Counted from the stretch's first letter, positions 8,425 through 24,727 are shown. The stretch: DNA of 64,000 nt from Minisyncoccota bacterium (GCA_041661005.1 JBAZVG010000001.1:607515-671514), one strand, 5' to 3'. Numbers and translations: made by a program. The notes: a model not told the origin generated them from the sequence alone.

Positions 8425-8456
8425 AGAAACTCCCACGATTTAAGGTGGGAGTTTCT
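8425..8456 (+). terminator. hairpin just after the avd stop (agaaactcccac-N8-gtgggagtttct), T-rich 3' flank
   Basis: Perfect 12-bp inverted repeat starting 2 nt after the avd stop; lies between avd and TR. Confidence 0.45.
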
Positions 8457-8478
8457 TATGAGAGAAGATGGAAATGCC

Positions 8479-9000: not shown

Positions 9001-9033
9001 GCCTCCGCGCCCCAGAAAAAATGGCGCGGAGGC
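9001..9033. promoter_or_regulatory. GC-rich hairpin (11-bp perfect stem gcctccgcgcc/ggcgcggaggc, 11-nt loop), 27 nt past the target stop and 50 nt from the VR 3' end
   Basis: Inverted repeat seen directly; no U-run on either strand, so not a canonical intrinsic terminator; position matches DGR hairpin/cruciform elements. Confidence 0.5.
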
Positions 9034-9059
9034 TCAAGTAGTCAAGAGGAGCAAATCCT

Positions 9060-9707
9060 CTAGGCTACAAGGGTCACTTTCAGGGAGGCGCCAACACCGA
9101 CGCGGTCGCCCTGGAGACCACCCCAGCCGATGACAGAGAGACCGTGCCCGCCGAAGATACCGACGCACGAGACGTCACCAGCGTTGACCTGCGCGGTCTT
9201 CACGGTACGCTCGGCGCAGGCCGCCCAAACGTTCGGGTTGGACCGCTTTCCGGTGCGACGATAGACGAGGATATCCTTGGTCACTTCGGCGATGGTCGTC
9301 GGCACTTCGTACTCAGGGGGCAACATCGCCACCTGCTCTTCGGGCGTCTTGCTCGTCGAGCCGGGAACAATTTCCCTGAGCATGATGTACAAACGCGGTT
9401 CGAGTACCGCGATGTCCGTGTGTGGCTGACCCACATGCCACGGATTTGTGTTGAAGTAGAACTTCGGCTGTCCGTCCGCCGAATGTAGCTCAAGCCACTT
9501 CGCGACCGTGAGCGGATTGCCGTCGAGCGCCGGCATCCCCATGAAGGCGAAGTGAGTGTCTTTCACCAGTTTGCCCTTGTTGAAGGGGCAGGCGCTCATG
9601 AGGACTTCCTCGACCGCCGGGCCCAACTTTTCAGTTGGGCCGTAGTAACTGACCCAGTCGGCTTGACCGAAGATGCGAACTCGGAGGTCCTGCGTTGTGC
9701 TTGTCAT
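9060..9707 (-). CDS. DGR variable (target) protein, VR at the C-terminus
   Basis: 215 aa; ~60% GC ORF in a ~35% GC context; the last 36 codons are the VR (9083-9190). Confidence 0.8.
   Translation of the reverse strand: MTSTTQDLRVRIFGQADWVSYYGPTEKLGPAVEEVLMSACPFNKGKLVKDTHFAFMGMPALDGNPLTVAKWLELHSADGQPKFYFNTNPWHVGQPHTDIAVLEPRLYIMLREIVPGSTSKTPEEQVAMLPPEYEVPTTIAEVTKDILVYRRTGKRSNPNVWAACAERTVKTAQVNAGDVSCVGIFGGHGLSVIGWGGLQGDRVGVGASLKVTLVA
9083..9190 (-). repeat. DGR variable repeat (VR)
   Basis: 108 bp; 19 differences from TR, all at TR adenine positions (minus-strand sense). AAC in TR becomes GAC/ATC/GGC/CAC/CTC/CGC in VR, and AAT becomes TCT or GGT. Confidence 0.85.
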
Positions 9708-10455: not shown

Positions 10456-10489
10456 GTAATTATTATAGCAGATATTAAAATTTGTCGCA

Positions 10490-10590
10490 GGCGTACTTTT
10501 TAGAAAGCCTTGCGCAGGCTGACGAGCCGAGCAGTTCGCTGGCAAAGCTTTGCCAGATAGATTGCTTTATGAAAAGTATGCCAAGAAAGA
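10490..10590 (-). repeat. intergenic TIR/hairpin repeat family 1, copy A (reverse orientation)
   Basis: Shares ~100 bp with 13517-13609 and 23539-23631; 18-bp terminal inverted repeats; central variable hairpin ctggcaaagctttgccag. Confidence 0.7.
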
Positions 10591-10600
10591 ATTTTAATAT

Positions 10601-10864
10601 CTAAACGAGTTCAACCTTCTTCATCAAAGCGTTGTAGCGAGCCTTGTTTGTTCTTTCCAAATATTTCAAATGAGTGCGTCTGTTGGCCACCATCTTGATC
10701 AAACCCCTTCGAGAATGATTGTCTTTCTTGTGTTTCTTTAAATGTTTTGCCAATTCATCAATCGCCGCAGAAATAATAGCCACCTGCACCTCTGGAGAGC
10801 CTGTGTCCTTATCATGAATCTGATTTTTCTTTATAATTGTCTGCTTTTTCTTTACTGCTAACAT
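10601..10864 (-). CDS. rpsO: 30S ribosomal protein S15
   Basis: TGSPEVQVAIISAAIDELAKHLKKHKKDNHSRRGLIKMVANRRTHLKYL matches the S15 consensus; internal Met at 10864 (88 aa). Confidence 0.9.
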   Translation of the reverse strand: MLAVKKKQTIIKKNQIHDKDTGSPEVQVAIISAAIDELAKHLKKHKKDNHSRRGLIKMVANRRTHLKYLERTNKARYNALMKKVELV

Positions 10865-10962
10865 ACAAAGGATAATAGCATAAACTGGCAAAAATTGCAA
10901 TCCCACCCTCTCCTCAAGATTTTTTGTATAAAATATATTGTGCGACATGGTAGAATATATTC

Positions 10963-11949
10963 ATGGCATCAATTAAAGATCTAAAAAACCAATTTCTTGA
11001 ATATATAGAAATAGAAAAAGGACGAGCGATAAGAACCGTAGAAAATTACGATCATTATTTGACTGTATTTCTGGAGCAGACAAAAATTACAGACCCCAAA
11101 AACATAACCGACGATAAAGTCCGAGACTTTCGTATTTGGCTCAATCGTCAACCCGCATTGCCGGAGCACATGCGAGGCAGGTCCACTGGAAACAATCGCG
11201 TGACAGGCGACACCATAAAAAAGAAAACACAGAATTATTATTTAATAGCTCTCAGAAGTTTCCTAAAATTTTTAACAAAAAGAAATATTAATTCCCTACC
11301 GGCAGACCATATAGAGCTCGCAAAAATCAGTGAAAGACAAATAGACGTAATTTCTCAAGAAGAATTGAAAAGACTTTTAGACGCTCCGAATCAAGAAAAA
11401 AATCCTGAAAGAAAAGCTCGCGACAAGGCAATACTAGAGATGCTTTTTTCCACCGGTTTGCGTGTTTCTGAACTGTGTTCGTTGAAAAATGATTTAGATC
11501 TGCATTTAGACGAATTTTCTATCCGTGGAAAAGGAGGAAAGGTCCGCGTAGTTTTCTTGTCTGACGAAGCCAAGAAGGCGGTGAAAGATTATTTAACTTT
11601 GCGAAAAGACATGTCGGACGCTCTTTTTGCAAAAGTAAATGATGAAACTTTTAAAGGAAAAAATTTGAATCAAAAAAAGAATAACTCAGAAATAGAAGAT
11701 GGCCTAACTCGCCGTTCGATAGAAAGAATTGTAAAAAGATACGCCACGATCGCCGGCATATCCAAAAAAGTAACTCCCCATGTGATTCGTCATGTCTTCG
11801 CGACTGACCTCTTAAGCAACGGCGCAGACATTCGTTCTGTGCAAGCCATGCTCGGCCATGCCAACATAGGTACTACACAAATATATACTCACGTGACGGA
11901 CAAACATTTGCGGGATATACACAAGAAATATCATGGCATCAATAAATAA
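10963..11949 (+). CDS. xerC: tyrosine recombinase XerC/XerD family
   Basis: 328 aa; C-terminal HVIRHVFATDLL...GHANIGTTQIYTHV (R-H-R-Y catalytic residues); extended -10 TGgTAGAAT lies 6 nt before the ATG. Confidence 0.88.
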   Translation: MASIKDLKNQFLEYIEIEKGRAIRTVENYDHYLTVFLEQTKITDPKNITDDKVRDFRIWLNRQPALPEHMRGRSTGNNRVTGDTIKKKTQNYYLIALRSFLKFLTKRNINSLPADHIELAKISERQIDVISQEELKRLLDAPNQEKNPERKARDKAILEMLFSTGLRVSELCSLKNDLDLHLDEFSIRGKGGKVRVVFLSDEAKKAVKDYLTLRKDMSDALFAKVNDETFKGKNLNQKKNNSEIEDGLTRRSIERIVKRYATIAGISKKVTPHVIRHVFATDLLSNGADIRSVQAMLGHANIGTTQIYTHVTDKHLRDIHKKYHGINK

Positions 11950-11969
11950 GGTATAATAAATTCATAAAT

Positions 11970-12623
11970 ATGGATTATTCAAAACACAAAGATTACTACA
12001 AAACGGCATATCAAAATGGCACTGACATTTGGACGCACTTGCCGGTCAAGACAAGGGGCGTAAAGAAATTGATAGAAAAACTGCCTCCCGGTGGATCTAT
12101 TTTAGACATCGGTTCTGGGCGTGGACTTATTGCAAAAAATTTGGCAGAAATGGGTTTTAAAGTTATCGGTATAGATTTCGAAGGAGATGTCGTGAGGAAA
12201 GTAAACGAGGAAATAAAAAACTGGAAGCTGGAAGGCAAGTTGAAATTCATAGAAGCAGATGTCTTTGACATACCCTTCACAGATGCTAGCTTTGACGGAG
12301 TTTGTGATTTTGGATTATTGGAAAATTTATACCAAGGAGACTGGGAGCTTTATGCAAATGAGATAAATCGCATCTTGCGACCGGGTGGATTTTATTTAAA
12401 TGTTTCCTTATCGCGCAAAACGAAAGATTTCTTAGACTTCTCCCCTATCAATTCTAAAAATGGAGAACTTGAAAAAGATGACGTGCACTATCATTTTTTC
12501 GAAAAAGAAGAGATTGTAAATATCTTTAACAAAAAAATGACATTAGTTTCCGATAGCATAGAATTTTCAGAAAAACCAAGAGAGGTGGCGCTACTGCAAA
12601 CACTTTTCCAAAAGAAAAAATAA
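11970..12623 (+). CDS. class I SAM-dependent methyltransferase
   Basis: Motif I ILDIGSGRGLIAKNLAEMGFKVIGIDF. Confidence 0.75.
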   Translation: MDYSKHKDYYKTAYQNGTDIWTHLPVKTRGVKKLIEKLPPGGSILDIGSGRGLIAKNLAEMGFKVIGIDFEGDVVRKVNEEIKNWKLEGKLKFIEADVFDIPFTDASFDGVCDFGLLENLYQGDWELYANEINRILRPGGFYLNVSLSRKTKDFLDFSPINSKNGELEKDDVHYHFFEKEEIVNIFNKKMTLVSDSIEFSEKPREVALLQTLFQKKK

Positions 12624-12650
12624 AATACAAACCTCTCCCCGCCTTTGGCA

Positions 12651-12680
12651 CCCCTCTCCATTCTACGGAATGGAGAGGGG
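12651..12680 (+). terminator. GC-rich hairpin (cccctctccatt-ctacg-gaatggagagggg) after the methyltransferase stop, next to the xth promoter
   Basis: 12-bp perfect stem; an extended -10 gTGTATAAT follows at ~12690. Confidence 0.35.
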
Positions 12681-12707
12681 TTGGGGGTGAGGGTGTATAA
12701 TAGAACA

Positions 12708-13514
12708 ATGCGATTAGTTTCTTGGAACGTAAACGGGATAAGGGCAGTGCATAAAAAAGGACTTCTTATGCCTTTTATAAAAAAACATAAACCAGATATT
12801 TTTTGTATCCAAGAAACCAAAGCACAAAAAGATCAGAGCGAGGTAGATCTGTCAGACTATGAAGAATATTGGAACTCAGCTACACGCAAAGGATACAGTG
12901 GCACCGCAATATTTGTACACAAATCTTTTGAGAAACCACTCGCTGTCACACTCGACTTTCCACAGAACATTGTGAAACAATATAATTTGTCTACCGATAA
13001 TTTTGGAGATGTGAATGCTGAAGGCCGAGTTTTAACTTTAGAATTTAAAGATTTTTATATTGTAAATGTTTACACACCAAATAGTAAACGTGAACTCACA
13101 CGGTTGAAACTCAGACATAAACAATGGGACCCTGCCTTTCTTGAATACATGAAAAACCTAGAAAGGCGGGGCAAGTCCGTCATTTTCTGCGGAGATTTAA
13201 ATGTTGCGCACACACCTGATGATCTTGCGAATCCAGAAACCAATCACACGACGCACGGTTTCACAGACGAGGAACGTGAAGGAATCCAAAATGTAATCGA
13301 TTCCGGTTTCACAGATACTTTTAGAATGTTTACAAATGGAAACGGACACTATACATGGTGGAGTCCTTTTAGAAATGCGCGAGCGAGGAACATAGGGTGG
13401 AGAATAGATTATATTTTCGTAAGCTCTGAATTATTAAAGAAAATAGTGAGCTCAAAAATATTTCCTGAAGTTTTAGGTTCTGATCATTGTCCGATTGTGC
13501 TTGAAATGTCTTAA
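12708..13514 (+). CDS. xth: exodeoxyribonuclease III (AP endonuclease, EEP family)
   Basis: MRLVSWNVNGIRA... with a C-terminal histidine motif; internal Met at 12708 preferred. Confidence 0.88.
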   Translation: MRLVSWNVNGIRAVHKKGLLMPFIKKHKPDIFCIQETKAQKDQSEVDLSDYEEYWNSATRKGYSGTAIFVHKSFEKPLAVTLDFPQNIVKQYNLSTDNFGDVNAEGRVLTLEFKDFYIVNVYTPNSKRELTRLKLRHKQWDPAFLEYMKNLERRGKSVIFCGDLNVAHTPDDLANPETNHTTHGFTDEEREGIQNVIDSGFTDTFRMFTNGNGHYTWWSPFRNARARNIGWRIDYIFVSSELLKKIVSSKIFPEVLGSDHCPIVLEMS

Positions 13515-13516
13515 AA

Positions 13517-13609
13517 ACTCTTTCTTGGCATACTTTTTATAAAGCAATCTATCTGGCGTTGCTACGCCAGCGAACTGCTCGGCTCGTCAGCCTGCGCAAG
13601 GCTTTCTAA
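13517..13609 (+). repeat. intergenic TIR/hairpin repeat family 1, copy B
   Basis: Starts 3 nt after the xth stop; central hairpin ctggcgttgctacgccag (compensatory relative to copies A and C). Confidence 0.7.
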
Positions 13610-13664
13610 AAAATACGCCTGCAACGAGTTTTTAACTAAAGAGTTTTGTGCTATTATTTTAACT

Positions 13665-14327
13665 ATGAATCATAGTAGACTAGATCAGCTTTCAGACGGA
13701 ATATTTGCCATCGTGATGACTATTCTCGTCTTTCAGATTGAGCTACCGACAATCTGGGGGCCGATAGATAACCTAGGACTCTGGAACGAAATTGCAAAAT
13801 TACTTCCAGTATTTTTGAGCTACGCTTTGAGCTTCGCCATTCTTTATACTTATTGGCGAGCGCATCATTTCTTTGTAACTATTTACGCCAAAAATGTTGA
13901 CTCAATGCTCATAAACATCAATGCCCTATTTCTCATGCTGATAAGTTTGATACCCTTTTCATCCAGCATCCTCGGACAATTCAGCAAGAATGAATTGCCG
14001 ATAATAATATTCGGAGTACATACGATTTTGATCGGGCTCACCTTGTATTGGATGCGAAGATACGTCTTGTATTCTGAACATATAAAAAATCCAGAAATAA
14101 CCAAACGCGAAATTCGCGGTAGCACCGTTCGCACTTTGGCACCCGTAGTCTTTGCCATCATTGCCATACCGCTTTCTTTTTTCAGCATAACTCTTTCTCT
14201 TATTTTGTTCACTTTGGCTGTTATTTTCAATCTGTCCTCATATAGCACTCGTCTTTTCGAAAAAATAATGAAAGCAATTCATGGCTTCATGTTCGGAGCT
14301 GACATAAAAGGCCACTTCGCAGACTAA
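13665..14327 (+). CDS. DUF1211/TMEM175-family membrane protein (putative K+ channel)
   Basis: N-terminal RLDQLSDGIFAIVMTILVFQIELP signature and multiple TM helices. Confidence 0.7.
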   Translation: MNHSRLDQLSDGIFAIVMTILVFQIELPTIWGPIDNLGLWNEIAKLLPVFLSYALSFAILYTYWRAHHFFVTIYAKNVDSMLININALFLMLISLIPFSSSILGQFSKNELPIIIFGVHTILIGLTLYWMRRYVLYSEHIKNPEITKREIRGSTVRTLAPVVFAIIAIPLSFFSITLSLILFTLAVIFNLSSYSTRLFEKIMKAIHGFMFGADIKGHFAD

Positions 14328-14355
14328 AAATGCTGGTTTTTAGGTAGAAAAATTT

Positions 14356-16041
14356 ATGCAAAAAATTTGCCAGACATGTAAAAAAAATTTTGAAATAAGG
14401 GATGAAGATTTAACTTTTTATGAACAGGTAAAAACTGTTCCCCCACTTGATTGCCCTGACTGCCGTATGGCAAGACGGTTAGTTTTCCGTAACGAGAGAA
14501 CTTTTTATAAAAGACCTTGTGATCTTTGCAAGAAAGACATGATTTCCTTGTATGACGACAAATCGTCCTTTTTGTCATATTGCCACGATTGTTGGTGGAG
14601 CGATAAATGGGATCCAAAAAGTTTCGCCCAAGATTATGATCCGAACAAAACATTTTTTGAACAATTTAGAGAATTACAAAAAAAGGTGCCGAGAATTGGT
14701 TTGATGGTCTTAAATAATGTAAGAAGTGAATACACAAATGGCGCAGCCGAAAATAAAGATTGTTATCTGATTTTTGCCGCTGATTATAATGAAGATTGTC
14801 TGTATGGAAGACTGCTTCAAAGGAATAAAGGATGTGTAGACTGCGCTTTCCTGCACGAATCCGAGCTTTGTTATGAATGTATAGACACTAGAGGATGTTT
14901 CAAATGCATGTTTTGCGAGCAATGCCAATCTTCAACCGATCTTTTATTCTGCTACAACATGCGCAATTCAAATAATTGCATTTTCTGCACGAACGGAAGA
15001 AATGTTTCCAACGCAATCCTTAACGTAAAGTATACAAAAGAAGAATATGAAGAAAAGAAAAAGGAAATCCTTTCCAGTTATGACAGCATCGAGCAAGCGA
15101 AAAAGGAATTTGCAGAACTAAAGAAAAAAACTATTGTAAAATACGCTTCACAAACCAAATGCCACAATGTGACTGGCAACTATTTACATAACTGCCATCA
15201 AGGAATAATGCTCTATGACACTTACGACTCAAAAAATTGTTCTTACATGACGGACACAGAAAATCCGACAGATAGCATGGATTGCAATAATTTTTACTAT
15301 AAATCAGAATTTTGTTATAACGTTATGGGGTCAATCCAAATGAGTAAAGTTAAAAATTGCGCATTCGGTTTTTACTCAAATGAAACAGAATATTGCGAAA
15401 ATTGTTACAACCTGACAAGTGCATTTGGATGTTCCGCTATTCGTAAAGGTGAATATATGATTTTGAATAAACAATATTCTAAGGAGGAATACTATGAACT
15501 TAGAGCAAAAATTGAAGAGAGTATGAGAAAAGAAAATGTTTACGGACAATTTTTTCCAGCCAGTCTAGCCCCTTTCGGATATAATGAGACACTTGCACAC
15601 GAATATTTCCCTCTAACTAAAGAAGAAGCGCTTAAAAGAGGTTTCAGATGGCAAGAAAGAACTACCGGCACCTACGGTAAAGAAACAATCAAAGAAAATG
15701 ATATGCCGAAGACTATCGGAGAAGTCACTGAAGATATTTTAAACCAAGTTTTGGTGTGTAAAGACTGCAAAAAGAATTTTCGCATCACAAAATCCGAATT
15801 GGACTTTTATAAAAGAATGAACATCCCCCTTCCCCACAAAGATTTCGAATGCCGACATCAAGATAGGATGAAGAAACGCAATCCACGTAAACTTTGGCAC
15901 AGAAAATGCATGAAAGAAGGTTGTCAAAATGAATTCGAAACCTCCTACTCCCCCGACCCGCGCTACGCCGAAGGCTCCGGCGAGGCGAGCCGTCCGGAGA
16001 TAGTGTATTGCGAGACTTGCTATCAGCAGGAAGTGTATTAA
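14356..16041 (+). CDS. cysteine-rich protein with homologous N- and C-terminal zinc-ribbon modules (paralog of 59195-60916)
   Basis: 561 aa; ~50 Cys; modules CxxCKKxFxIxxxDLxFYxxxxxPxPxxCxxCR at both ends; central CxxC repeats; shared C-terminus ...KLWHRKCMxxGCxNEFETSY...RPEIVYCxxCYQQEVY. Confidence 0.6.
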   Translation: MQKICQTCKKNFEIRDEDLTFYEQVKTVPPLDCPDCRMARRLVFRNERTFYKRPCDLCKKDMISLYDDKSSFLSYCHDCWWSDKWDPKSFAQDYDPNKTFFEQFRELQKKVPRIGLMVLNNVRSEYTNGAAENKDCYLIFAADYNEDCLYGRLLQRNKGCVDCAFLHESELCYECIDTRGCFKCMFCEQCQSSTDLLFCYNMRNSNNCIFCTNGRNVSNAILNVKYTKEEYEEKKKEILSSYDSIEQAKKEFAELKKKTIVKYASQTKCHNVTGNYLHNCHQGIMLYDTYDSKNCSYMTDTENPTDSMDCNNFYYKSEFCYNVMGSIQMSKVKNCAFGFYSNETEYCENCYNLTSAFGCSAIRKGEYMILNKQYSKEEYYELRAKIEESMRKENVYGQFFPASLAPFGYNETLAHEYFPLTKEEALKRGFRWQERTTGTYGKETIKENDMPKTIGEVTEDILNQVLVCKDCKKNFRITKSELDFYKRMNIPLPHKDFECRHQDRMKKRNPRKLWHRKCMKEGCQNEFETSYSPDPRYAEGSGEASRPEIVYCETCYQQEVY

Positions 16042-16048
16042 TTTAAAT

Positions 16049-16909
16049 CTATTTAAGTTTCTGAAATTCTTTAATAAATTGAAGTGGATTCACAGAAGCA
16101 TTGCCGACTTTAATAGCAAAATGGAGGTGCGCACCCTCTACATCTGCTCCCTGATCGCCCGAATAGCCAACAATTTCGCCTGCTTTTATTTTTGATCCAG
16201 CTTGCACCAAAACTTTTGAAAGATGTAGATATTTTGAAATAACTCCATCACCATGATCTATCACAACTGTCGGCCCTTCTAAATACAGTGCCTTACTTTC
16301 ACCCCAGAGAATAATACCGTCGGAAATCGCATAGACCGGCGTGTCAATTTTTGCGCGTAAATCCACTCCTTGATGTGTGGTTGAGTAATTGGTATAAATC
16401 CTTTTATATCCAAACGGACTTGTGGTCGTCATAGTATCAAGTGGATCTCTGAAGATTGATTTCCAAAGCTTGGGTTTCGTTTCTGTAACTACCTTAGTAA
16501 GTAAAGCTACAAGTGGAGCTTTGTCTTTTAATACGACCTCCTGCTTTGCTTTAGGAAGCGTCGCAAATTTATATGCTGTTTTTGTCACAGTTTTTTTGTA
16601 AGTTCCTAATTTTACCTGAATAACTCTCCTATCTAATTCTTTTTCACCTTCTTTAATTCGAAGATTATAATTACCGAGTTGCTTGCTCACGTCAACCGCA
16701 ATAAGAGTATACTTTCGATCACCATAATCAAAAACCGGCATTTTTACACCACCAAACAATACCGAAGTTGTCGTCGAAAAATATATCGGATACAAAAGCA
16801 CCTCCCCTTGTTTCACAGTTAAAAGAGCGGCATCCGATTCATGACTAAATCCCAAAATACATGACAAAAAAATTAGAAAGATGAAAAATCTTGCGCTAAA
16901 ATTATTCAT
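16049..16909 (-). CDS. M23-family metallopeptidase (LytM-like), secreted
   Basis: Signal peptide; HxxxD ... HLHF catalytic motifs. Confidence 0.85.
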   Translation of the reverse strand: MNNFSARFFIFLIFLSCILGFSHESDAALLTVKQGEVLLYPIYFSTTTSVLFGGVKMPVFDYGDRKYTLIAVDVSKQLGNYNLRIKEGEKELDRRVIQVKLGTYKKTVTKTAYKFATLPKAKQEVVLKDKAPLVALLTKVVTETKPKLWKSIFRDPLDTMTTTSPFGYKRIYTNYSTTHQGVDLRAKIDTPVYAISDGIILWGESKALYLEGPTVVIDHGDGVISKYLHLSKVLVQAGSKIKAGEIVGYSGDQGADVEGAHLHFAIKVGNASVNPLQFIKEFQKLK

Positions 16910-16921
16910 ACTGCTATCATA

Positions 16922-18631
16922 TCATTTCCGCACTCCATGTTTGGTATGTAACTTTTCCACCTCTTTTTCTTCGAGCTCTTCTTTTTTTTCTTTTCCTTTA
17001 TCCCCAAGCGCTTTGAGCTCTTTGTCACTGAGTTTGTCAAAAGATTTCACTAATTCAGACAATTTTTCTACTGTATTTTTCTCTGGATTATCTAAAACTT
17101 CTTCTAGTAAAGCATGCAAGATCCACCCCATTCTGGGTCCCGGCTTGATTCCAAGCTCTTTTATCATGAATTCCCCATTGATTTTCAGCTGTCCGACAGA
17201 AATAGGGTCTCGAAGCGCCTCTTCAATCATTGCAAAATACTTGCGCAAGCGATATGGCGCTTCTTTTTTCTTCATTCCTACCCTGTCGCACTCACGGACA
17301 TTCATCAAAAGCCAAATATTATCCACGCCGACTTTTGTAATAATCCTACGCACAGCAGAAAGTGTGATTAATTCTGTATCTGAAAAAAACATATGGTTGC
17401 GAACAAGTTTTTCCACAAGATCAATTTCTTTTTTGGGAAATTTCAATCTCTCCATTATTTTTTTTACCATTCGCGCGCCGACAACTTCATGGCCGTAGAA
17501 AGTATATTTTTTCTTTGAAGCCTGCCTCGACAAAAATTCTGGGAGCCGTATCGGTCCCCTGTCCTCTTGACTCCAAGGGCGAAGGCGGGAGAATTTTTCG
17601 GTCGGGGCAGGCGAAAAAATTCGTCTTGTTTTCGGCTTGCCGATATCGTGAAAAAGCGCAGAAAGCCTTATTTCTAAAGGCCAATTCTTGTCTGCGGCAT
17701 GTTGTAGGGCATGAAGCAAATGATCCCAAACATCATAAATATGCTCGCCTAATTGTTCACACCTTATCCCCTCTTCTAATTCCGGAATTATATTTTTTAA
17801 CAATCCAAATTTTTGCAACATTAAAATTCCACTCGCAGGATTTTTAGACATTATTATTTTTACAAACTCATCACGAATTCTTTCCTCAGATATTTTTTTT
17901 ATTAAATCAGAATTTTTTAAAATACTTTCTGTTGTGAGATATGACACAGAAAAATCAAGTTGACAAGCAAAGCGAACAGCGCGCAACATTCGCAGAGCAT
18001 CTTCTTGAAATCTTTCATCCGGCTCCCCTACTGCTCTTAATGTTTTACTCTCAATGTCCTTTATACCACCAAACAGGTCAATAACATGTCCGTTATCTTG
18101 TCCTTGATGCCTGCCCGCCGTAGATTTAGCGGAGGCGGGTCCTTTATCTATCCGAAGAGCTAGAGCATTGACCGTGAAATCACGTCTCTTAAGGTCATCT
18201 TCTAGTCTAGTACTGAATCTAATTTCATCGGGGTGTCGGAAGTCGCTATATTTTGCTTCAATTCTATATGGTGTAACTTCAATAATGCTATATTCTGATG
18301 TTGTTTCACGAATAACGTCACCCGGAGATGTTTCTCGTGAAACATCCGTCTTGTTTGTTTCACGCGGAACGTCCTGAGTATGCCCGAAAGATGAAACGCA
18401 TACACCAACAGTACCAAAGGTATTTTCATAGATAGTCTTTTTAAAAAGACCCATAATCTGATCTGGTTTAGCGTTTGTTGTAACATCCCAATCGTTCGGT
18501 TTTCTAGACATTATAAGATCACGAACACAACCACCAACTAGATATGCTTCAAAACCAGCTTTTTCAAGCACACTAGTTACATGTGAAACTTCTTTAGGTA
18601 TCTTTTCGATGATATTTTTAAGATTAGTCAT
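16922..18631 (-). CDS. cca: CCA tRNA nucleotidyltransferase / poly(A) polymerase family with HD domain
   Basis: GGCVRDLIM...DWDV head domain and a C-terminal HD domain; contains an in-frame repeat insertion (see 18297-18380). Confidence 0.85.
   Translation of the reverse strand: MTNLKNIIEKIPKEVSHVTSVLEKAGFEAYLVGGCVRDLIMSRKPNDWDVTTNAKPDQIMGLFKKTIYENTFGTVGVCVSSFGHTQDVPRETNKTDVSRETSPGDVIRETTSEYSIIEVTPYRIEAKYSDFRHPDEIRFSTRLEDDLKRRDFTVNALALRIDKGPASAKSTAGRHQGQDNGHVIDLFGGIKDIESKTLRAVGEPDERFQEDALRMLRAVRFACQLDFSVSYLTTESILKNSDLIKKISEERIRDEFVKIIMSKNPASGILMLQKFGLLKNIIPELEEGIRCEQLGEHIYDVWDHLLHALQHAADKNWPLEIRLSALFHDIGKPKTRRIFSPAPTEKFSRLRPWSQEDRGPIRLPEFLSRQASKKKYTFYGHEVVGARMVKKIMERLKFPKKEIDLVEKLVRNHMFFSDTELITLSAVRRIITKVGVDNIWLLMNVRECDRVGMKKKEAPYRLRKYFAMIEEALRDPISVGQLKINGEFMIKELGIKPGPRMGWILHALLEEVLDNPEKNTVEKLSELVKSFDKLSDKELKALGDKGKEKKEELEEKEVEKLHTKHGVRK
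18297..18380. repeat. GTTTCACG / CGTGAAAC palindromic repeat family 5, three tandem units in frame in cca (encodes VPRET...VSRET...VIRET)
   Basis: tgtttcacg x2 plus palindrome gatgtttctcgtgaaacatc; the same core recurs at 19163-19190 and 19381-19400. Confidence 0.5.
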
Positions 18632-18641
18632 TCAATTTTTG

Positions 18642-18715
18642 TGCACCCGGGGGGAGTCGAACCCTCAACGACCGCTTCGAAGGCGGGTATGATATCCATT
18701 TCACTACGGGTGCAA
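18642..18715 (-). tRNA. tRNA, probably Arg (anticodon TCG), non-canonical
   Basis: Cloverleaf with acceptor GCACCCG/CGGGTGC, T-loop TTCGACT, anticodon loop CTTCGAA; one mismatch each in the anticodon stem (27:43 C.T) and the T stem; no encoded CCA. Confidence 0.5.
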
Positions 18716-18894
18716 AATTATTTAATAATCAGTTAATTATACACTAATTCGAAAAATCCACAAATAACTCTTATTTTACAAGCCAATTAAGGAATTGCTT
18801 TAGTTCAAAAAAAATATTATAATCAAAGCACATTTTTATTTTAGGAAAAGAATTTAAAATGTTTTTATTGTTCCTTGTTACATAAATAAATTTT

Positions 18895-18965
18895 GCGGTC
18901 ATCGATTAATGGTAGGTCAGGACATTGCCAATGTTCAGGTTGGAGTTCGATTCTCCATGGCCGCA
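18895..18965 (+). tRNA. tRNA-Gly (GCC)
   Basis: Acceptor GCGGTCA/TGGCCGC, anticodon stem GGACA/TGTTC with loop TTGCCAA, T arm TGGAG-TTCGATT-CTCCA. Confidence 0.7.
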
Positions 18966-19162
18966 CAAAGTGATGTCCTTTATAAATTTTCGGTGATATC
19001 TTGAAAAATAAGCTTTTATTCTAAACTGTGGATAACTATGTTGGTAATGTTTATAAAGGACACATTCAGAGTTTGTCTTTAAAGTACTTTTTTGACTAAA
19101 ATACGTTGCAAAATAAGGATACCCGCCTTGCCGTCGAGGCAGGTTTCAATAAAAGACACTAA

Positions 19163-19190
19163 ATTTCAAGTATTTGTTTCACGTGAAACA
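19163..19190. repeat. perfect 28-bp palindrome tatttgtttcacgtgaaacaaata (family 5 core) just upstream of yraN
   Basis: Seen directly. Confidence 0.45.
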
Positions 19191-19203
19191 AATACAATAA
19201 TAA

Positions 19204-19629
19204 ATGCCAAAAGTATTTACCTCAGAAACACAAAAGATAGGAGAAATAGGTGAAAATATAGCCGTAAAGTTTCTCATGAAACGTGGTTTTTCTATACTGG
19301 ATCGTAATTACACGAAGAAATGGGGAGAAATAGACATAATAGCCGAGAAATCAAATAAACTCTATTTCATCGAGGTTAAGAGTGTTTCTCGTGAAACACT
19401 AAATACTTTTATTCCAAAATCTTTTAGTGACTCTGATGAAAGATATGAACATAGACCAGAAGATAACATGCATCCGTGGAAATTAAAAAGAATGGCGCGA
19501 ACAATCCAAACTTATATTTTATCTAAAAATCTAGATGAAAGAGAATGGCAAGTAGATTTGTTGGTTGTTTATTTATGTAAAAAAGAAAAGATGGCAAGAG
19601 TAAAAGTAGTAAGTGATATTATTTTATAA
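19204..19629 (+). CDS. yraN: YraN-family (UPF0102) endonuclease-like protein
   Basis: GEIGENIAVKFLMKRGFSILDRNYTKKWGEIDIIAEKSNKLYFIEVKS matches the YraN core; contains a family-5 palindrome at 19381-19400. Confidence 0.7.
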   Translation: MPKVFTSETQKIGEIGENIAVKFLMKRGFSILDRNYTKKWGEIDIIAEKSNKLYFIEVKSVSRETLNTFIPKSFSDSDERYEHRPEDNMHPWKLKRMARTIQTYILSKNLDEREWQVDLLVVYLCKKEKMARVKVVSDIIL

Positions 19630-19651
19630 AGACATTTTTAGCGATAATTTG

Positions 19652-19725
19652 TGGTGCGGGATAGGAGAATCGAACTCCTGTCCACAGTTTGGAAAACTGT
19701 TATTTTACCATTAAACTAATCCCGC
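19652..19725 (-). tRNA. tRNA-Gly (TCC) with encoded CCA
   Basis: GCGGGAT...anticodon loop TTCCAAA...GGAGTTCGATTCTCC...ATCCCGCACCA. Confidence 0.85.
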
Positions 19726-19729
19726 AATG

Positions 19730-19800
19730 TCGGGCCGCTGGGAATTGAACCCAGTCTAAATGCTCCCAAAGCACTTGTACTACCGGTATACTACGGCCCG
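19730..19800 (-). tRNA. tRNA-Pro (TGG)
   Basis: CGGGCCG acceptor, anticodon loop TTTGGGA (G37), T arm CTGGG-TTCAATT-CCCAG. Confidence 0.8.
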
Positions 19801-19901
19801 TAATTTCTTTAACTGTGCCAGTTTAACACAAAAATTTTTTAAATTCTACCTAATTCAATTCTCCTAAAAACTATTTTTATACAGTCTATTTCTCTTTCGT
19901 C

Positions 19902-21170
19902 CTATTTAGCCCAACTCCAATCAGCTCCAGGATTTTTAGCGCCGAAAATTTCAAAGTGAATGTGGGGGCCAGTTGATTTGCCCGTAGAACCCACAAGACC
20001 GACAACATCTCCTCGGTCAACTTGTGCGCCAGTGTGAGTTATGACTTTGCTCATGTGAGCATACAAGGTTTTTGTGCCGTTTGAATGTTGAATTATCACC
20101 ATATTTCCATAACCTCCACCACAACGTGTCTGACCAACCTTACAGCCTGTCTTGACTGCTGTTACGATTCCTGGAGCAGATGCATAAATATTGGTACCAG
20201 TTGGAGCTCCAATATCTATACCTCTTCTGCCCGGACCATGAAGACCTTGAGTTTTGTGGCCAGTTGGAAGGGGATTAATAAAATATCCTATTATATTTTT
20301 CAATGAGCTAGTAGCATAGTAGTTTTTATCCTTGATTTCATTAGCTTTTAGGTTTGGCGATGGAATATCACCTCCTTCATCGGCCATATTGCCATTTGGA
20401 ATCATCAGTTTGTCTCCGATTGCAAGTTTGGTGGCTTCGTTGATGTCGTTGTAAAAAGTAATATCGTCCACATCCACCTTATACAATTTGGCTATGCTCT
20501 GTATTGTCTGCCCCTTAGTAACCGTATGTTCAATACCAGAAATGGGTAAGATGAAGAGCACATCACCCTCGATAATCTTGTCGCTTTTCTTCATATCGTT
20601 GGCCCAGAGGATGGTATTCACTGAAACTTCGAACATATCGGCTATGGCGGATATGGAATCTCCTTTTCTTACAACATAAACACTGGTTTCCATGGCAGAA
20701 GGATCCACAACATCTTTTCCACTGTAGACTCCCATGGGGCCGGTGGCTGGTAAAAGAGCATTGTTAGAGACAATGTTATCTGCGTTATCTACATCAACAA
20801 TGCCTCCTTTGTCTTTTTGGCTAACATCTTTTAATTTTTTATCTTCATAGACTGAAGCAGAAGAGATATTGGCCTGAAGAAGCGCTATGGTTCCAGAAGT
20901 TTGACTAAACTGAGTCGGATCAACAGTTGCCGTCTTCGCGCTGGCATTGTCACCCAAGATTGAAGACAAAAACCCGGCTTGAGCTCTTGTAGGCATAGAG
21001 GGCAACAAAACAACCCCAAACAATAGGGTAAGAGCGAAAATAGAGCTGTATATTTTAAATGAGTGTTTTATAAAACAAACGAATATCGTAAGAGTTCCTT
21101 CCCAGCCCTCGATTAAACATTGTAAAATAAGGGTGGAATTACAGGACGACCAGAATAGTACTGCAAACAA
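19902..21170 (-). CDS. LysM-domain M23 peptidase (secreted cell-wall hydrolase)
   Basis: Two LysM repeats and a C-terminal M23 domain (HxxxD, HIHFE); TTG start at 21170; hydrophobic signal-like segment. Confidence 0.85.
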   Translation of the reverse strand: MFAVLFWSSCNSTLILQCLIEGWEGTLTIFVCFIKHSFKIYSSIFALTLLFGVVLLPSMPTRAQAGFLSSILGDNASAKTATVDPTQFSQTSGTIALLQANISSASVYEDKKLKDVSQKDKGGIVDVDNADNIVSNNALLPATGPMGVYSGKDVVDPSAMETSVYVVRKGDSISAIADMFEVSVNTILWANDMKKSDKIIEGDVLFILPISGIEHTVTKGQTIQSIAKLYKVDVDDITFYNDINEATKLAIGDKLMIPNGNMADEGGDIPSPNLKANEIKDKNYYATSSLKNIIGYFINPLPTGHKTQGLHGPGRRGIDIGAPTGTNIYASAPGIVTAVKTGCKVGQTRCGGGYGNMVIIQHSNGTKTLYAHMSKVITHTGAQVDRGDVVGLVGSTGKSTGPHIHFEIFGAKNPGADWSWAK

Positions 21171-21307
21171 AAGGTTCTCACGATGGTTACTATCACTTCT
21201 AGCTTTCGGTCAATTTATGCCATGCCTCTCTTCAGAACTATACCTTCAAAGTACCTCAAAAAAATACTAAAGTCAACGATGGTGTGGATAACTTTAGAAA
21301 CTAAAGT

Positions 21308-23527
21308 TTGTGTTATATTTCAAGTGTGACCACAGACACACAACATTTTTTTGGACTAAACAATAAACAAAAAGAAGCGGCGATGCACATAAGCGGTCCG
21401 CTTCTTATTATTGCAGGGGCGGGTGCGGGAAAAACTAAAACAATAACGCATAGAATTGTGAATTTGATAAAAAACGGAGTCGCCCCAGAGAGAATTTTAG
21501 CGGTTACGTTCACAAATAAAGCAGCAAAGGAAATGCGGGAACGGATTATCGCTGAAATTAAGAAAAATTCCCACGAAGCAGGGGGCCAAGAAAAAACCCC
21601 ATTCGTCAGCACGTTTCATTCATTGGGGGTCTATATCATAAAAGAAAATGCCAGATTGCTGGGATTAACCAAGCACTTTACGATTCTAGATGAAGGAGAC
21701 GCGACATCACTCATAAAAGAAATACTAAAGGAGTTAGGAATAGATCCGAAACAATATGATCCAAAAAAAATAAAAAATATAATATCTCGCGAAAAAGGAA
21801 AATTCACACATTTGTCAGACTATGCAGAGAGGGAAAGGGGAACATATGGTTTGATGGTAACGCAAGTTTGGGGTTTATATGAAAAACAAAAAATGAAAGA
21901 AAATTCGCTAGACTTCGATGATCTGCTTTTAAAGGCGACGAAATTGTTAAAGGACAATCTGGAAATAAGGAAAATTTATCAGGAGAAATGGGAATATATT
22001 CATATCGATGAATATCAAGACACAAATGAGGTGCAGTATTTGATGTCTAAAATGTTAGCGGAAAATAATGAAAATATCTGCGTAGTTGGAGACGCAGACC
22101 AAAACATCTACTCCTGGCGCGGAGCAAATTTGAAAAACATTTTAAGTTTCGAGAAAGATTATCCGAGTACAAAGATAGTTTTATTAGAAGAGAATTACAG
22201 ATCAACTCAAAACATCTTGGAGGCGGCCAATGTGGTAATTAAAAAAAACAAATACAGGCCAGACAAGAATTTATTCACAAAAAACAAAACTGGCGAAAAA
22301 ATAGGCCTATATGAAGCACTCGATGAAAGCGATGAGTCTGATTTTGTCGCGACAAAAATTCTAGAGATTTTAGATGGCTCGCCTGCGAGAGAAATATCCT
22401 CGGACTCACCACGAAAATTTTCTGCTGAAAATTTTCTCTGTCCGTCGTCGCCACTCCTACCAAGGGTTCCCTCGAGGACATTTCTCTCTTCGGCTGATAA
22501 CGCAGTAAGTTTCCTTGAGCGGGGTGTCTCGCAGGCTGACGAGCCGAGAGGCAGCGCTCCGCGAGCGCGCGGAGACAGCGACCCCGCTGAGACAGCACCT
22601 GCTCCCTTGTCCGAAATCGCTATATTATATCGCGCTAATTTTCAGTCGCGGGCGCTAGAAGAAGCAATGCTGAAATACAATATCCCATATCAAGTTTTGG
22701 GCGTTAAATTTTTCGAAAGACGTGAAATAAAAGACACCTTGGCATATCTTCGCGCAGCGCTAAACCCCGACAGTTTGTCGGACATAAAACGAATAATTAA
22801 TTTCCCTGCGCGAGGTATCGGCAAGGTTACTTTGGCTAAAATTTTTGCCGGACAAAAAGAAAACTTGCCAATTAAGGTAAAAATTAAAATAAATAATTTT
22901 TATAAAATATTAGAAGAAATAAAAGAAAAAATAGAAAGCGAAAAAGCAAGCAAAGCGATAAAATTTGTAGTAAAAAGGTCAGGCATCGAGACAGAACTCT
23001 CATCTGGCACCGAAGAAGATATGGAGAGGTTTGAAAACATAAAAGAACTCGCCACACTAGCGCTAAAATATGATAATCTGGAGAATGGTCTTGGTGTAGA
23101 AAAGCTTTTAGAAGACGCCTCACTCGCGTCAGATCAAGATTCACTGATTATCAGCGAACCCGCCTCCACCAAAGGCTTCGGCGAGGCAAAGGAAAAAAAG
23201 AAAGGAGAAAACTCTGTGAAATTAATGACCGTGCATGCTTCAAAAGGATTGGAGTTTAAGTATGTCTTTGTTGCCGGATTAGAGGATGGACTTTTCCCCA
23301 ACCAAAGACGCAACGAAGAAGTGGATAAGGATAGTGAAGAAGAGCGTAGACTTTTTTATGTGGCGATCACTCGCGCTAAAGAAAAATTATTCTTATCGTT
23401 CGCGAATTTCCGCACCATCTTCGGAGCGCGCAACATCAACGCTCCATCAGAATTTATATCGGACATACCAGCAGATTTATTGGAAAAAGAGGGAGAAAAA
23501 GATAGAATAAAGACAATTTATATATGA
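21308..23527 (+). CDS. uvrD: ATP-dependent DNA helicase UvrD/PcrA family
   Basis: LNNKQKEAAMHISGPLLIIAGAGAGKT (motifs Q/I); motifs through VI present; carries a ~220-bp in-frame repeat insertion; TTG start. Confidence 0.88.
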   Translation: MCYISSVTTDTQHFFGLNNKQKEAAMHISGPLLIIAGAGAGKTKTITHRIVNLIKNGVAPERILAVTFTNKAAKEMRERIIAEIKKNSHEAGGQEKTPFVSTFHSLGVYIIKENARLLGLTKHFTILDEGDATSLIKEILKELGIDPKQYDPKKIKNIISREKGKFTHLSDYAERERGTYGLMVTQVWGLYEKQKMKENSLDFDDLLLKATKLLKDNLEIRKIYQEKWEYIHIDEYQDTNEVQYLMSKMLAENNENICVVGDADQNIYSWRGANLKNILSFEKDYPSTKIVLLEENYRSTQNILEAANVVIKKNKYRPDKNLFTKNKTGEKIGLYEALDESDESDFVATKILEILDGSPAREISSDSPRKFSAENFLCPSSPLLPRVPSRTFLSSADNAVSFLERGVSQADEPRGSAPRARGDSDPAETAPAPLSEIAILYRANFQSRALEEAMLKYNIPYQVLGVKFFERREIKDTLAYLRAALNPDSLSDIKRIINFPARGIGKVTLAKIFAGQKENLPIKVKIKINNFYKILEEIKEKIESEKASKAIKFVVKRSGIETELSSGTEEDMERFENIKELATLALKYDNLENGLGVEKLLEDASLASDQDSLIISEPASTKGFGEAKEKKKGENSVKLMTVHASKGLEFKYVFVAGLEDGLFPNQRRNEEVDKDSEEERRLFYVAITRAKEKLFLSFANFRTIFGARNINAPSEFISDIPADLLEKEGEKDRIKTIYI
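22389..22486. repeat. TIR-bounded repeat family 2 (reverse orientation) inserted in frame in uvrD
   Basis: Termini gagaaatatcctcggac ... gtcctcgaggacatttctc; core gacggacagagaaaattttcagcagaaaattttcgtggtgagtccgag shared with 24020-24133 and 56167-56256. Confidence 0.7.
22521..22585. repeat. palindromic repeat family 3 (GGGGTGTCTCGCAGGCTGACGAGCCGAG...GGAGACAGCGACCCC) in frame in uvrD
   Basis: Shared with 62263-62327 and 62690-62754 (reverse); inner stem ctccgcg/cgcggag. Confidence 0.7.
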
Positions 23528-23538
23528 AACTCTTTCTT

Positions 23539-23631
23539 GGCATACTTTTTATAAAGCAATCTATCTCCGCAAGCTTGCGGAGCGAACTGCTCGGCTCGTC
23601 AGCCTGCGCAAGGCTTTCTAAAAAGTACGCC
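23539..23631 (+). repeat. intergenic TIR/hairpin repeat family 1, copy C
   Basis: Starts 12 nt after the uvrD stop; central hairpin ctccgcaagcttgcggag. Confidence 0.7.
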
Positions 23632-23656
23632 TGCAACGAATTTCATAATTAAAAAT

Positions 23657-24727
23657 ATGATATATAAAGCTAAAAAATCGTTAGGACTAAAAAACGAACA
23701 CGTTTTCGTCCGAGCCAAAAAGGCTTTAGGACAAAATTTCCTGAAATCGGAAATGGCCTTGCGAAAAATTATTGAAGCGGGAGAAATAAAAAAAGATGAC
23801 ATAATCCTTGAAATAGGTCCGGGCAGGGGAGCGCTAACAAAAAAGCTTTTGGAAAAAGTTTACCCCGCCACGGCGGGGCAAGGATTTGTGATAGCAGTAG
23901 AAAAAGATTATGAACTTTTTGAATTTTTAAAAAATAAATTTGAAAGTGAAATAAAATTAGGTTCTCTCGTGCTGGTGCAAGATGACATACTGGATTTTGA
24001 TATAACAAAAGTTGGGCAAAATATTCTCGAGCGAACCCTTGGTAGCAGAAAATGTGCTGGGGGCACATTTCTGAGAGACGACGGACAGAGAAAATTTTCA
24101 GCAGAAAATTTTCGTGGTGAGTCCGAGAATATTTTGCCCAATTTAAAACGCTACAAAATAATCGCCAACATCCCTTACAACATCACCGGCGCGATTTTGA
24201 AAAAATTTTTGACAGACAAACATCAGCCCGAAAGCATGGTGCTGATGGTGCAACATGAAGTTGCGACAAGAATACTCGGAAGGGGAAGCAACCCTTCGAC
24301 TCCGCTCAGGGTAAAAGAAAGCATACTTTCCATTTCGGTCAAAGCATACGGAGCTCCAAAAATGATTGCGAAGGTTGATAAAAGATATTTTTCACCAATG
24401 CCAAAGGTAAATTCAGCGATTATTTCCATAAAAAATATTTCACGCAAGAATTTTAATTCTCCTCTTGAGGAGTACTCCGACTTGGAGTCGGAGGGAGGTG
24501 GACCGAATTTATCCACCCCGTCTCGCCAGCGAGCCACCCCTCAAGAGGGGAATTTTGAAGAAAAATTTTGGGAAATAGTTAAGGCAGGCTTTGCGCACAA
24601 GCGAAAAAAGCTTTCTAGCAACCTGAAAAACATTTGTCAAAGGGCATCTTTGACAAGTTTGGGGAATAAAAGAGCGGAAGATTTGTCGCTAAAGGATTGG
24701 ATTGAACTTGCGAAATCACAAAACTAG
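23657..24727 (+). CDS. rsmA: 16S rRNA (adenine1518/1519-N6)-dimethyltransferase RsmA/KsgA
   Basis: LGQNFL, EIGPGRGALT, NIPYNI motifs; lengthened to 356 aa by two in-frame repeat insertions. Confidence 0.85.
   Translation: MIYKAKKSLGLKNEHVFVRAKKALGQNFLKSEMALRKIIEAGEIKKDDIILEIGPGRGALTKKLLEKVYPATAGQGFVIAVEKDYELFEFLKNKFESEIKLGSLVLVQDDILDFDITKVGQNILERTLGSRKCAGGTFLRDDGQRKFSAENFRGESENILPNLKRYKIIANIPYNITGAILKKFLTDKHQPESMVLMVQHEVATRILGRGSNPSTPLRVKESILSISVKAYGAPKMIAKVDKRYFSPMPKVNSAIISIKNISRKNFNSPLEEYSDLESEGGGPNLSTPSRQRATPQEGNFEEKFWEIVKAGFAHKRKKLSSNLKNICQRASLTSLGNKRAEDLSLKDWIELAKSQN
24020..24133. repeat. repeat family 2 copy in frame in rsmA (with an extra internal hairpin agaaatgtgc/gcacatttct)
   Basis: TIRs aatattctcgagc ... 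gtccgagaatatt. Confidence 0.7.
24461..24550. repeat. palindromic repeat family 4 (CCTCTTGAGG...CCTCAAGAGG) in frame in rsmA
   Basis: Shared with 31728-31802, 40784-40866 and 48989-49063; inner hairpin variant ctccgacttggagtcggag. Confidence 0.7.

Follow-up and report, generated by a model that had tools for sequence, protein, structure and literature searches.

A palindromic three-way-junction repeat between and inside genes of Patescibacteria: a candidate non-autonomous insertion element

A stretch of 64,000 nucleotides (nt) from a Minisyncoccota bacterium (GCA_041661005.1 JBAZVG010000001.1:607515-671514; hereafter the window) carries, next to its stop codons, copies of a palindromic repeat designated family 1. 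Family 1 is one arm-subfamily of a superfamily of palindromic elements approximately 125-145 base pairs (bp) in length. We give about even odds to the reading that these are non-autonomous palindromic insertion elements acting at the DNA level: a Patescibacteria-wide superfamily with a three-way-junction fold, the core of which would be read by a putative enzyme acting in trans. The family is large and apparently undescribed, as no published description of the element was found in Rfam 15 or in the literature on palindromic repeats of Patescibacteria, Parcubacteria or the Candidate Phyla Radiation (CPR).

The initial annotation of the window listed three family-1 copies, at 10490-10590, 13517-13609 and 23539-23631. 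All three are present, and their central hairpins are exactly those quoted (ctggcaaagctttgccag, ctggcgttgctacgccag and ctccgcaagcttgcggag). For these coordinates, the distances given to the stop codons of xth (3 nt) and uvrD (12 nt) are also right, the stops being at 13512-13514 and 23525-23527. The window, however, holds a fourth copy (Table 1), and the length given for the family (approximately 95-115 bp) is too short, as the copies span 125-139 nt. They do adjoin stop codons, as had been noted: the elements either overlap the upstream stop or begin within a few nt of it. The three copies first listed are pairwise approximately 90% identical over 117-119 nt. Allowing up to one mismatch, the window contains seven occurrences of the 18-mer that they share, GCAGGCTGACGAGCCGAG, against 0.01 expected from dinucleotide shuffles, and the 19-mer CTCGGCTCGTCAGCCTGCG is common to all seven window copies, that is, four of family 1 and three of its relative, family 3 (copy 4 has one mismatch). 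When a 66-nt core covariance model built from 41 cores was run on the window, exactly seven strong copies were recovered (66-78 bits), of which four are intergenic, one is in uvrD and two are in uvrB. The model thus matches families 1 and 3 alike, in agreement with the earlier suggestion of a single superfamily, with members between genes as well as within them.

With RNA and with DNA energy parameters alike, each strand of every copy folds into one and the same three-way junction (z-scores of -3.9 to -10.4 with DNA parameters), and this junction was recovered in all minimum free energy folds of approximately 120 loci. Three parts make it up: the outer stem, which is long; hairpin A, whose stem varies and whose loop is TGCT or AGCT; and hairpin B, which is nearly invariant. 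The single central hairpin described at first is therefore two hairpins within a junction. The outer arms pair over approximately 45 nt with a conserved internal loop, so that terminal inverted repeats are present, although the 18 bp originally assigned to them fall short because pairing extends outward past this loop. The order along the outer stem is a 6x6 internal loop (TTTCTT/TGCGAC), a distal stem (AAACTC/GAGTTT) and then 4-11 further paired bases, which vary between subfamilies or loci. Hairpin B has the sequence pattern xx-C-t-CGGCT[CGTC]AGCC-t-G-c-G-xx. In the family-3 copies in uvrD and uvrB, the hairpin-A loop and hairpin B are as in family 1, and the junction bases differ.

The helices of this fold covary. 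In 116 distinct copies aligned to the model, standard pairs occupy 99.4% of the 1740 cells of hairpins A and B, with 538 double-sided changes (0 of 500 shuffles as high), and slid registers pair only 34-51%. Hairpin A alone has standard pairs in 99.0% of 812 cells, and CG, GC, AU and UA are each seen at every position; further copies have thus kept their pairing, and the compensatory hairpin of the initial annotation is borne out. In 13 copies that were collected via UvrD and not via the repeat, hairpins A and B are 96.7% paired (hairpin A, 95%) and the apical pair of hairpin B is UA, GC or CG. This apical pair and the two basal pairs of hairpin B (TG/CA, CT/AG, TT/AA or CC/GG) covary between subfamilies. 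Entropy profiles show that variation within families is limited to the inner five hairpin-A pairs and the distal arms, the loops and junction bases being invariant; copies 2 and 3, for instance, are 97-100% identical outside hairpin A and differ at all five of its inner pairs. The full-length arms of 20 family-1-type copies covary at the distal five pairs. Arms and inner modules reassort among copies, and chimeras such as copy 4, which combines family-1-type arms with an inner module of F2 type (AATTTTC-TGCT-GAAAATT), show that recombination between elements occurs.

Empty orthologous sites identify the elements as insertions, and presence/absence polymorphism was seen at three places. In 22 UvrD relatives, the uvrD stop and ksgA start are separated by 0-13 nt or overlap (ATGA), constituting the empty site, and the 125-nt element is found at this junction only in the window and in the relative L144. 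The site of the first uvrB copy is empty in L047, which reads YFP-KTG-FLTIIDESH where the window reads YFP-HTG-[38 residues]-FLTIIDESH; L047 does have an ortholog of the second uvrB copy. Flanked by ILEILDG and EIAILYRAN, the UvrD loop behaves as a hot spot: it is empty in L145, L146, L149 and L140, and filled by a reverse family-3 copy in six sequences, by a forward copy in two and by another repeat family in three. Compared with PcrA, the window UvrD has approximately 78 extra residues at this hot spot, corresponding to two adjacent repeats.

No direct target-site duplication was found beyond the palindrome ends in 22 copies with family-1 arms, and no fixed insertion target motif was seen among those compared. 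The flanks of these 22 copies are inverted repeats of each other that prolong the palindrome, with a sequence that differs by subfamily or locus. At copy 1, the flanks are AGATATT (left) and AATATCT (right), exact complements of each other; in the L081 ortholog the right flank is kept and the left flank is unrelated, despite an overall divergence of only 9%. Two of the classes first suggested for family 1 are only partly apt. The likeness to miniature inverted-repeat transposable elements, or MITEs, extends to a multi-copy palindrome with insertion polymorphism, but not to the classical MITE class, as there is no target-site duplication and no cognate insertion sequence (IS) was found in the window or neighbour ORFs. 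Similarly, the multi-copy palindromic character of REP sequences is shared, but membership of the REP/RAYT group is not supported: the in-gene copies contradict it, and the window has no Y1 transposase.

The family-3 core is GC-rich and, as read from its sequence, stop-free in five of six frames, and 33 of 44 family-3 copies lie in long open reading frames (ORFs). Family-1 and F2 types, which carry stop codons, are intergenic in 75 of 85 cases, with an outer arm that typically starts within a few bases of the upstream stop. In-gene forward copies use one frame, GSLSxxxxxALPLGSSACETP (17 of the 17 in that phase), and reverse copies one frame, G[VL]SQADEPRGSAxxxxxDSDP (19 of 20); one frame per orientation would be expected if selection filters for a harmless peptide. 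The host genes appear, from inspection of ORF clusters, to include those for UvrD, Tgt, TsaD, RF1 and Fmt, and UvrB was confirmed by Pfam. No Pfam family matches the encoded peptide. An exhaustive HMMER search with this peptide gave only eight matches at E<=1e-3, but the search is underpowered, because a match to a conserved core of 21 residues is unable to attain significance against 1.8 billion sequences, and is no evidence of absence.

The superfamily is widespread within one lineage. The 19-mer was found in at least 120 blocks or loci of a species-representative genome collection, and the architecture in more than 118 Patescibacteria (Parcubacteria-type) genomes. Among the matches listed, all but two or three are metagenome-assembled genomes (MAGs) labelled Nomurabacteria, Zambryskibacteria, Kaiserbacteria, Paceibacterota, Minisyncoccia, Parcubacteria, Patescibacteria or (TPA) 'Saccharibacteria', and the outliers (Acidipila and a deltaproteobacterium) do not have the fold. 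The closest relatives of the window are groundwater Patescibacteria contigs (77-84% nucleotide identity). The 19-mer is absent from 2.9 million viral contigs, and the whole element had no match in a plasmid collection. The neighbourhoods of the copies were surveyed by clustering 194 ORFs that adjoin or contain copies and by Pfam annotation of approximately 50 window ORFs. The clustered neighbour and host ORFs are housekeeping genes only, among them, besides those named above, genes assigned to a YqeY-like protein, DprA, SerRS and LepA. A full-length IS sharing the termini of the element was found neither in the 64-kb window nor in the ORFs within 250 nt of approximately 120 copies, and no TnpA or TnpB was seen in the window or the copy neighbourhoods. 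The only genes of a DNA-mobility type in the window encode a XerC/D-type integrase and the reverse transcriptase of a diversity-generating retroelement; RuvB/C, PolA, Avd and a dnaA-dnaN origin region are also encoded.

The four-fold degenerate sites of flanking genes differ by 41-60% between the window and L081, L144 and L047. By comparison, copy 3 differs from its L144 ortholog at 10 of 125 nt (8.0%, binomial P 2e-34) and copy 1 from its L081 ortholog at 12 of 133 nt (9.0%, binomial P 2e-16), so the element sequence is constrained. In the core of the uvrB copy shared with L047, the only changes are in hairpin A and at one outer-stem position; four of the five inner hairpin-A pairs are altered on both sides, and the arms, constant in length, have diverged to approximately 60% identity. 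Strong constraint thus acts on the unpaired and loop nucleotides and, in family 1, on most of the arm, while free helix positions drift at a roughly neutral rate yet stay complementary.

Three other explanations must be weighed against that of a DNA-level insertion element. An ordinary selfish repeat of the MITE or Rickettsia palindromic element (RPE) type, decaying without remaining activity or function, would appear conserved only because it is recent. A multi-copy palindrome, insertion polymorphism and tolerated in-frame insertions all match RPEs (PMC10969869), and no enzyme was found, but we regard this explanation as improbable: variation is uneven, confined to helix positions and always compensated, orthologous copies have changed by 8-9% while synonymous sites are near saturation, and paralogues differ at every inner hairpin-A pair and at only approximately 2% of positions elsewhere. 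This pattern, unlike that of a decaying repeat, needs host-level selection, selection for continued mobilisation in long-lived lineages, or gene conversion. The element might also be a host-functional DNA site that is not primarily mobile, such as a site for a lineage-specific protein of DNA metabolism, the nucleoid or competence, or an uptake-signal-like sequence, kept by host selection or by transformation-driven drive. In its favour are the conservation of orthologous copies (5-7 times that of four-fold sites), the identity of the 19-mer in more than 118 species-level genomes, its absence from viral contigs, the use of both orientations without target-site duplication and without a transposase in the window or neighbour ORFs, and the fact that several host or neighbouring genes (uvrD, uvrB, xth and dprA) act on DNA, which resembles the gene bias reported for neisserial uptake sequences. 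It nevertheless appears rather unlikely to us, as whole units of 114-125 nt are present or missing at orthologous sites, one UvrD loop is filled by different families and orientations, and arms and inner modules reassort. Moreover, known uptake or loading sites are duplexes of 10-30 bp that do not need a three-way junction, and on either side of dnaA (approximately 41 kb) copies are found in both orientations, without replication-strand bias.

A structured RNA within mRNA (one that stabilises 3' ends, is processed by an RNase, uncouples operons or serves as an unusual terminator after stops) would account for copies at stop codons within operons, for a family-1 orientation that follows transcription, and for strong predicted folds in which conserved loops accompany covarying helices, the classic signature of a functional RNA. 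We nonetheless give it little credence. RNA helices under selection usually hold a sizeable share of G-U pairs; here, G-U occupies 3 of the 812 hairpin-A cells and all other pairs are Watson-Crick. In-gene relatives with an identical core occur in both orientations relative to the gene (16 opposite and 17 same in one count, 14 and 21 in a second). The sense strand carries A.C mismatches, which would be G.U in the antisense; in the arms, transition-type mismatches (G.T to A.C) stand at 33:20 for genes that read the core strand and at 26:18 for those reading the opposite one, and these similar ratios leave no transcribed-strand signature. A scan of the window with Rfam 15 at the gathering threshold matched tRNAs only, and scans of one family-1 and one family-3 copy at E<=10 gave nothing credible (mir-702 at E=2 is noise). 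The terminator-like function that had been proposed for family 1 fails, as none of its copies has a GC stem followed by a T run, the basal stem being AT-rich. Of the two possibilities in the initial annotation, a selected RNA or DNA structure, the first therefore fares poorly: both orientations, near-absent G-U, unbiased mismatches and the lack of an Rfam match or terminator point to a DNA-level element. A promoter scan gave one weak match (GCGACA-18-AATAAT), overlapping the end of copy 1 only. A hammerhead ribozyme was considered from the reverse-strand stretch CUGACGAG and rejected, as this stretch is the loop and stem of hairpin B and not a junction strand, and ribozyme models in Rfam were unmatched.

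Several observations weigh against a mobile DNA element. Copy density outside the window looks low, with approximately 12 extra copies in 725 kb, and no transposase, HUH enzyme or RAYT was found in the 64-kb window (Pfam) or among ORFs within 250 nt of approximately 120 copies. No recent transposition event with identical copies was caught, as paralogous copies differ fully in the inner hairpin-A stem. Evolution 5-7 times slower than at synonymous sites is unexpected for a purely selfish element, and points to a host-level function, an addictive or drive mechanism, or gene conversion. Finally, family-1-type copies between co-directional genes are oriented with transcription in a ratio of 11:2 (cases that are not phylogenetically independent), and folding is in every case more stable for the strand antisense to the flanking genes (approximately -30 vs -24 kcal/mol) because two conserved A.C positions turn into G.T there; given this bias and the antisense fold, the element may have a strand-specific role.

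For an insertion element, the following mechanism may be proposed. Hairpin B and the TGCT loop would form the recognition module of a putative trans-acting DNA enzyme encoded elsewhere in the genomes, for which an HUH/RAYT-like enzyme, a recombinase and a nuclease are candidate classes. This enzyme may recognise either a cruciform or the single strand in its folded form, and would copy or maintain the element. Entry has been at tight gene junctions, at or within a few nt of the upstream stop, or, for the GC-rich variant, in frame at hot spots that are probably surface loops; copies would survive only where they come to lie after a stop and before the following start, or in frame within tolerant loops. 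Stem complementarity would be kept by hairpin-templated correction or template switching together with selection, and the same templated process may lengthen the palindrome into its flanks. Fold-back template switching and hairpin-templated repair are known from quasi-palindrome mutagenesis, and either would be the simplest account of the copy-1 flanks, in which, judging from L081, one arm appears to have been copied from the other. A single process of this kind would account for the near-exclusive Watson-Crick pairs, the fast but compensated stem turnover and the growth into flanks. More tentatively, and with some doubt, we suggest that the superfamily is a new class of structured DNA across Parcubacteria-type Patescibacteria, kept by purifying selection and by a dedicated putative enzyme that reads the junction via hairpin B and the TGCT loop. 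If so, it would be a REPIN/RAYT-like genome symbiont or a new system of single-strand transposition or maintenance, and would explain how essential proteins of minimal genomes gained in-frame loops of 35-40 residues.

The ultra-small Patescibacteria have streamlined genomes of approximately 1 Mb, which are considered poor in mobile DNA. Folded DNA elements that form one lineage-wide family, are constrained in nucleotide sequence and occur both at operon junctions and within uvrD, uvrB, tgt, tsaD, prfA and fmt would add a new component to this genome biology. Co-occurrence patterns in thousands of MAGs make the element a handle on the putative structure-specific DNA enzyme, and its insertion would be a natural explanation for many unexplained insertions in CPR proteins. 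The elements also matter in practice: assemblies can break at them, protein lengths can be inflated, and both gene callers and alignments can be misled. The near-absence of G-U among hundreds of compensatory changes represents covariation at the DNA level, and calls for caution in pipelines for RNA-motif discovery.

Table 1. Copies of the element in the window, with the two inner hairpins of copy 2
Feature	Position	Strand	Details
Family-1 copy 1	10470-10602	-	full palindrome 133 nt; model match 10502-10566 (-), 73.3 bits
Family-1 copy 2	13511-13635	+	125 nt; model match 13543-13607 (+), 77.7 bits
Family-1 copy 3	23523-23647	+	125 nt; model match 23555-23619 (+), 75.1 bits
Family-1 copy 4	38841-38979	-	model match 38876-38940 (-), 66.3 bits; fold z -8.3/-10.4
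Family-3 relative in uvrD	22509-22593	-	GC-rich, stop-free; 71.2 bits; in-frame reading ...RGVSQADEPRGSAPRARGDSDP...
Family-3 relative in uvrB, copy 1	62231-62360	-	outer stem of ~33 bp; 72.7 bits; in-frame HTG[ASNFLFRGVSQADEPRGSAPEASGDSDPEKEELLAPVPD]
Family-3 relative in uvrB, copy 2	62659-62783	+	opposite orientation to copy 1; 70.2 bits; reads ...FLGSLSPRTRGALPLGSSACETPQK...
Hairpin A of copy 2	13553-13570	+	CTGGCGT-TGCT-ACGCCAG; 7 bp, inner 5 hypervariable yet always complementary
Hairpin B of copy 2	13576-13598	+	TG-C-t-CGGCT-CGTC-AGCC-t-G-c-G-CA; near-invariant 19-mer at 13578-13596

The neighbours of the four intergenic copies are as follows. Copy 1, whose DNA fold is a three-way junction with z-scores of -4.7/-6.7, occupies the interval from the rpsO stop (10601-10603, minus strand) to the start of a NYN-domain gene (approximately 10455); the gene for ribosomal protein S15 is at 10601-10948 (minus strand) by Pfam. 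The distal arm of copy 2, TTAAAAACTC, includes the xth stop codon (the Exo_endo_phos, xth-type nuclease gene ends at 13514 by Pfam), and a TMEM175-like gene starts next at 13665. The distal arm of copy 3, TATGAAACTC, includes the uvrD stop codon (the UvrD helicase gene ends at 23527), and ksgA starts at 23657. Copy 4 fits exactly between two convergent stop codons, at 38842-38844 and 38976-38978, and abuts the end of a jag-like gene beside the origin neighbourhood. The latter (38976-43731) comprises jag/R3H, yidC and rnpA on the minus strand, and dnaA (41156-42502) and dnaN (42637-43731) on the plus strand.

Other repeats are present in the window. The core covariance model gives two weak 15-bit matches to another family that shares only the hairpin with a TGCT loop. 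This second in-gene family is approximately 90 nt in length, has the hairpin GAAAATTTTC-TGCT-GAAAATTTTC, with the same loop as hairpin A, and is located at 22393-22482 (uvrD), 24077-24134 (ksgA) and 56167-56256 (polA); it also occupies the UvrD hot spot in L123, L141 and L144. A third, GC-rich palindromic family (…CCACCCCTCAAGAGGGG…) is found at 24510-24568, 31762-31820, 40826-40884 and 48977-49068, with at least one copy in the ksgA ORF. This ORF encodes 356 amino acids, of which the Pfam RrnaAD match covers only residues 20-263. At its N-terminus (23657-23720), the window and L144 have extra residues after KKSLG (LKNEHVFVRAKKA...) without counterpart in other relatives; the stretch coincides with a small hairpin, GGAC...GTCC, and may be another short insertion. 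Long inverted repeats at 4015-4123 (40-nt arms) and 50207-50361 (26-nt arms) have no core-model match and may represent other families. One groundwater contig, L134, has identical F2-type cores at 4218-4282 and 7034-7098, 2.8 kb apart in direct orientation. One of these is in the UvrD hot spot and both are translated (...SIAQADEPSIANFQQKIMCGFQN), making them a candidate recent duplication.

With respect to other features, the region 7020-9704 looks like a diversity-generating retroelement, with an RVT_1 reverse transcriptase at 7020-8066 (minus strand), a bAvd gene at 8073-8420, and a 108-nt repeat pair (8479-8586 and 9083-9190, 82% identical) that fits template and variable repeats; the second repeat lies at the 3' end of an ORF at 9060-9704 (minus strand). 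A YafQ/RelB toxin-antitoxin pair is found at 6414-7024, and a type-IV-secretion-like set at 32599-37252 includes a weak PrgI match, a VirB4/TraG-type ATPase and a type IV secretion system (T4SS) pilin. Two large ORFs without a Pfam match, at 14356-16038 (plus strand) and 59195-60913 (minus strand, Cys-rich), share diverged 3' ends (inverted repeats, 75% complementary) and are probably paralogues.

With respect to known systems, a possible analogy, in structure only, is with the T-shaped hairpin of the inverted terminal repeats (ITRs) of parvoviruses such as adeno-associated virus (AAV), where two small internal hairpins on a long stem likewise give single-stranded DNA a three-way junction. An HUH nuclease reads the stem and one arm tip in the AAV case. 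The element described here is a chromosomal interspersed repeat and not a replicon terminus, with no Rep gene and no sequence similarity. Integron attC sites were considered and rejected: the ends of the element are AAACTC...GAGTTT and not R''/L''...L'/R' boxes (RYYYAAC...GTTRRRY), and the copies are dispersed, some in ORFs, and not in arrays. The neighbouring integrase is a generic Phage_integrase/XerCD-type match. IS200/IS605-derived palindrome-associated elements have subterminal hairpins, insert 3' of a fixed tetra- or pentanucleotide and occur in genomes with TnpA/TnpB. The lack of target-site duplication is compatible with this class; no fixed target motif was seen in the copies compared, and no TnpA/TnpB in the window or neighbour ORFs. 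The terminal inverted repeats of classical MITEs are those of a DDE transposon, and the target duplications that they make are direct (TA, for example), whereas here there is no target-site duplication, no parental IS was found in the window or neighbour ORFs, and the flanks prolong the palindrome. Correia/NEMIS, ERIC and BOX/RUP elements are similar in being small non-coding palindromes that are usually located at gene ends, are polymorphic between relatives and are sometimes intragenic.

The closest parallels are with REP sequences and RPEs. Like REPs and REPINs, the element is a hairpin-forming DNA repeat, one that would be recognised by its structure, without target duplication, with long vertical persistence and with sequence clouds within families; REPINs are mobilised in trans by a single-copy enzyme (RAYT, a Y1 HUH protein), and the same logic is proposed here. 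REPs, however, are extragenic palindromes of 20-40 nt with conserved stems and variable loops, whereas in the present element conservation is in the loops and junction and variation in the stems, copies are also found inside genes, and no RAYT was found in the window. RPEs are palindromic repeats in frame in ORFs that encode a conserved peptide, and the MITE review that describes them does not mention Patescibacteria, Parcubacteria or CPR lineages (PMC10969869). Both RPEs and the present element are multi-copy palindromes of approximately 100-150 bp in a lineage with reduced genomes, occur between genes and in frame in housekeeping ORFs, add a conserved peptide, and have no known linked transposase (PMC10969869). 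An in-frame palindrome with a conserved peptide is seen in the family-3 relatives (17 forward and 19 reverse), family 1 itself being intergenic and having stop codons. Compared by description, the present element differs from RPEs in its Patescibacteria host, three-way junction, invariant 19-mer and hypervariable but compensated hairpin, as well as in its use of one frame per orientation and in resident copies that are strongly constrained and not decaying. By analogy, then, the element may be described as RPE-like in its phenomenology and REPIN/RAYT-like in its logic.

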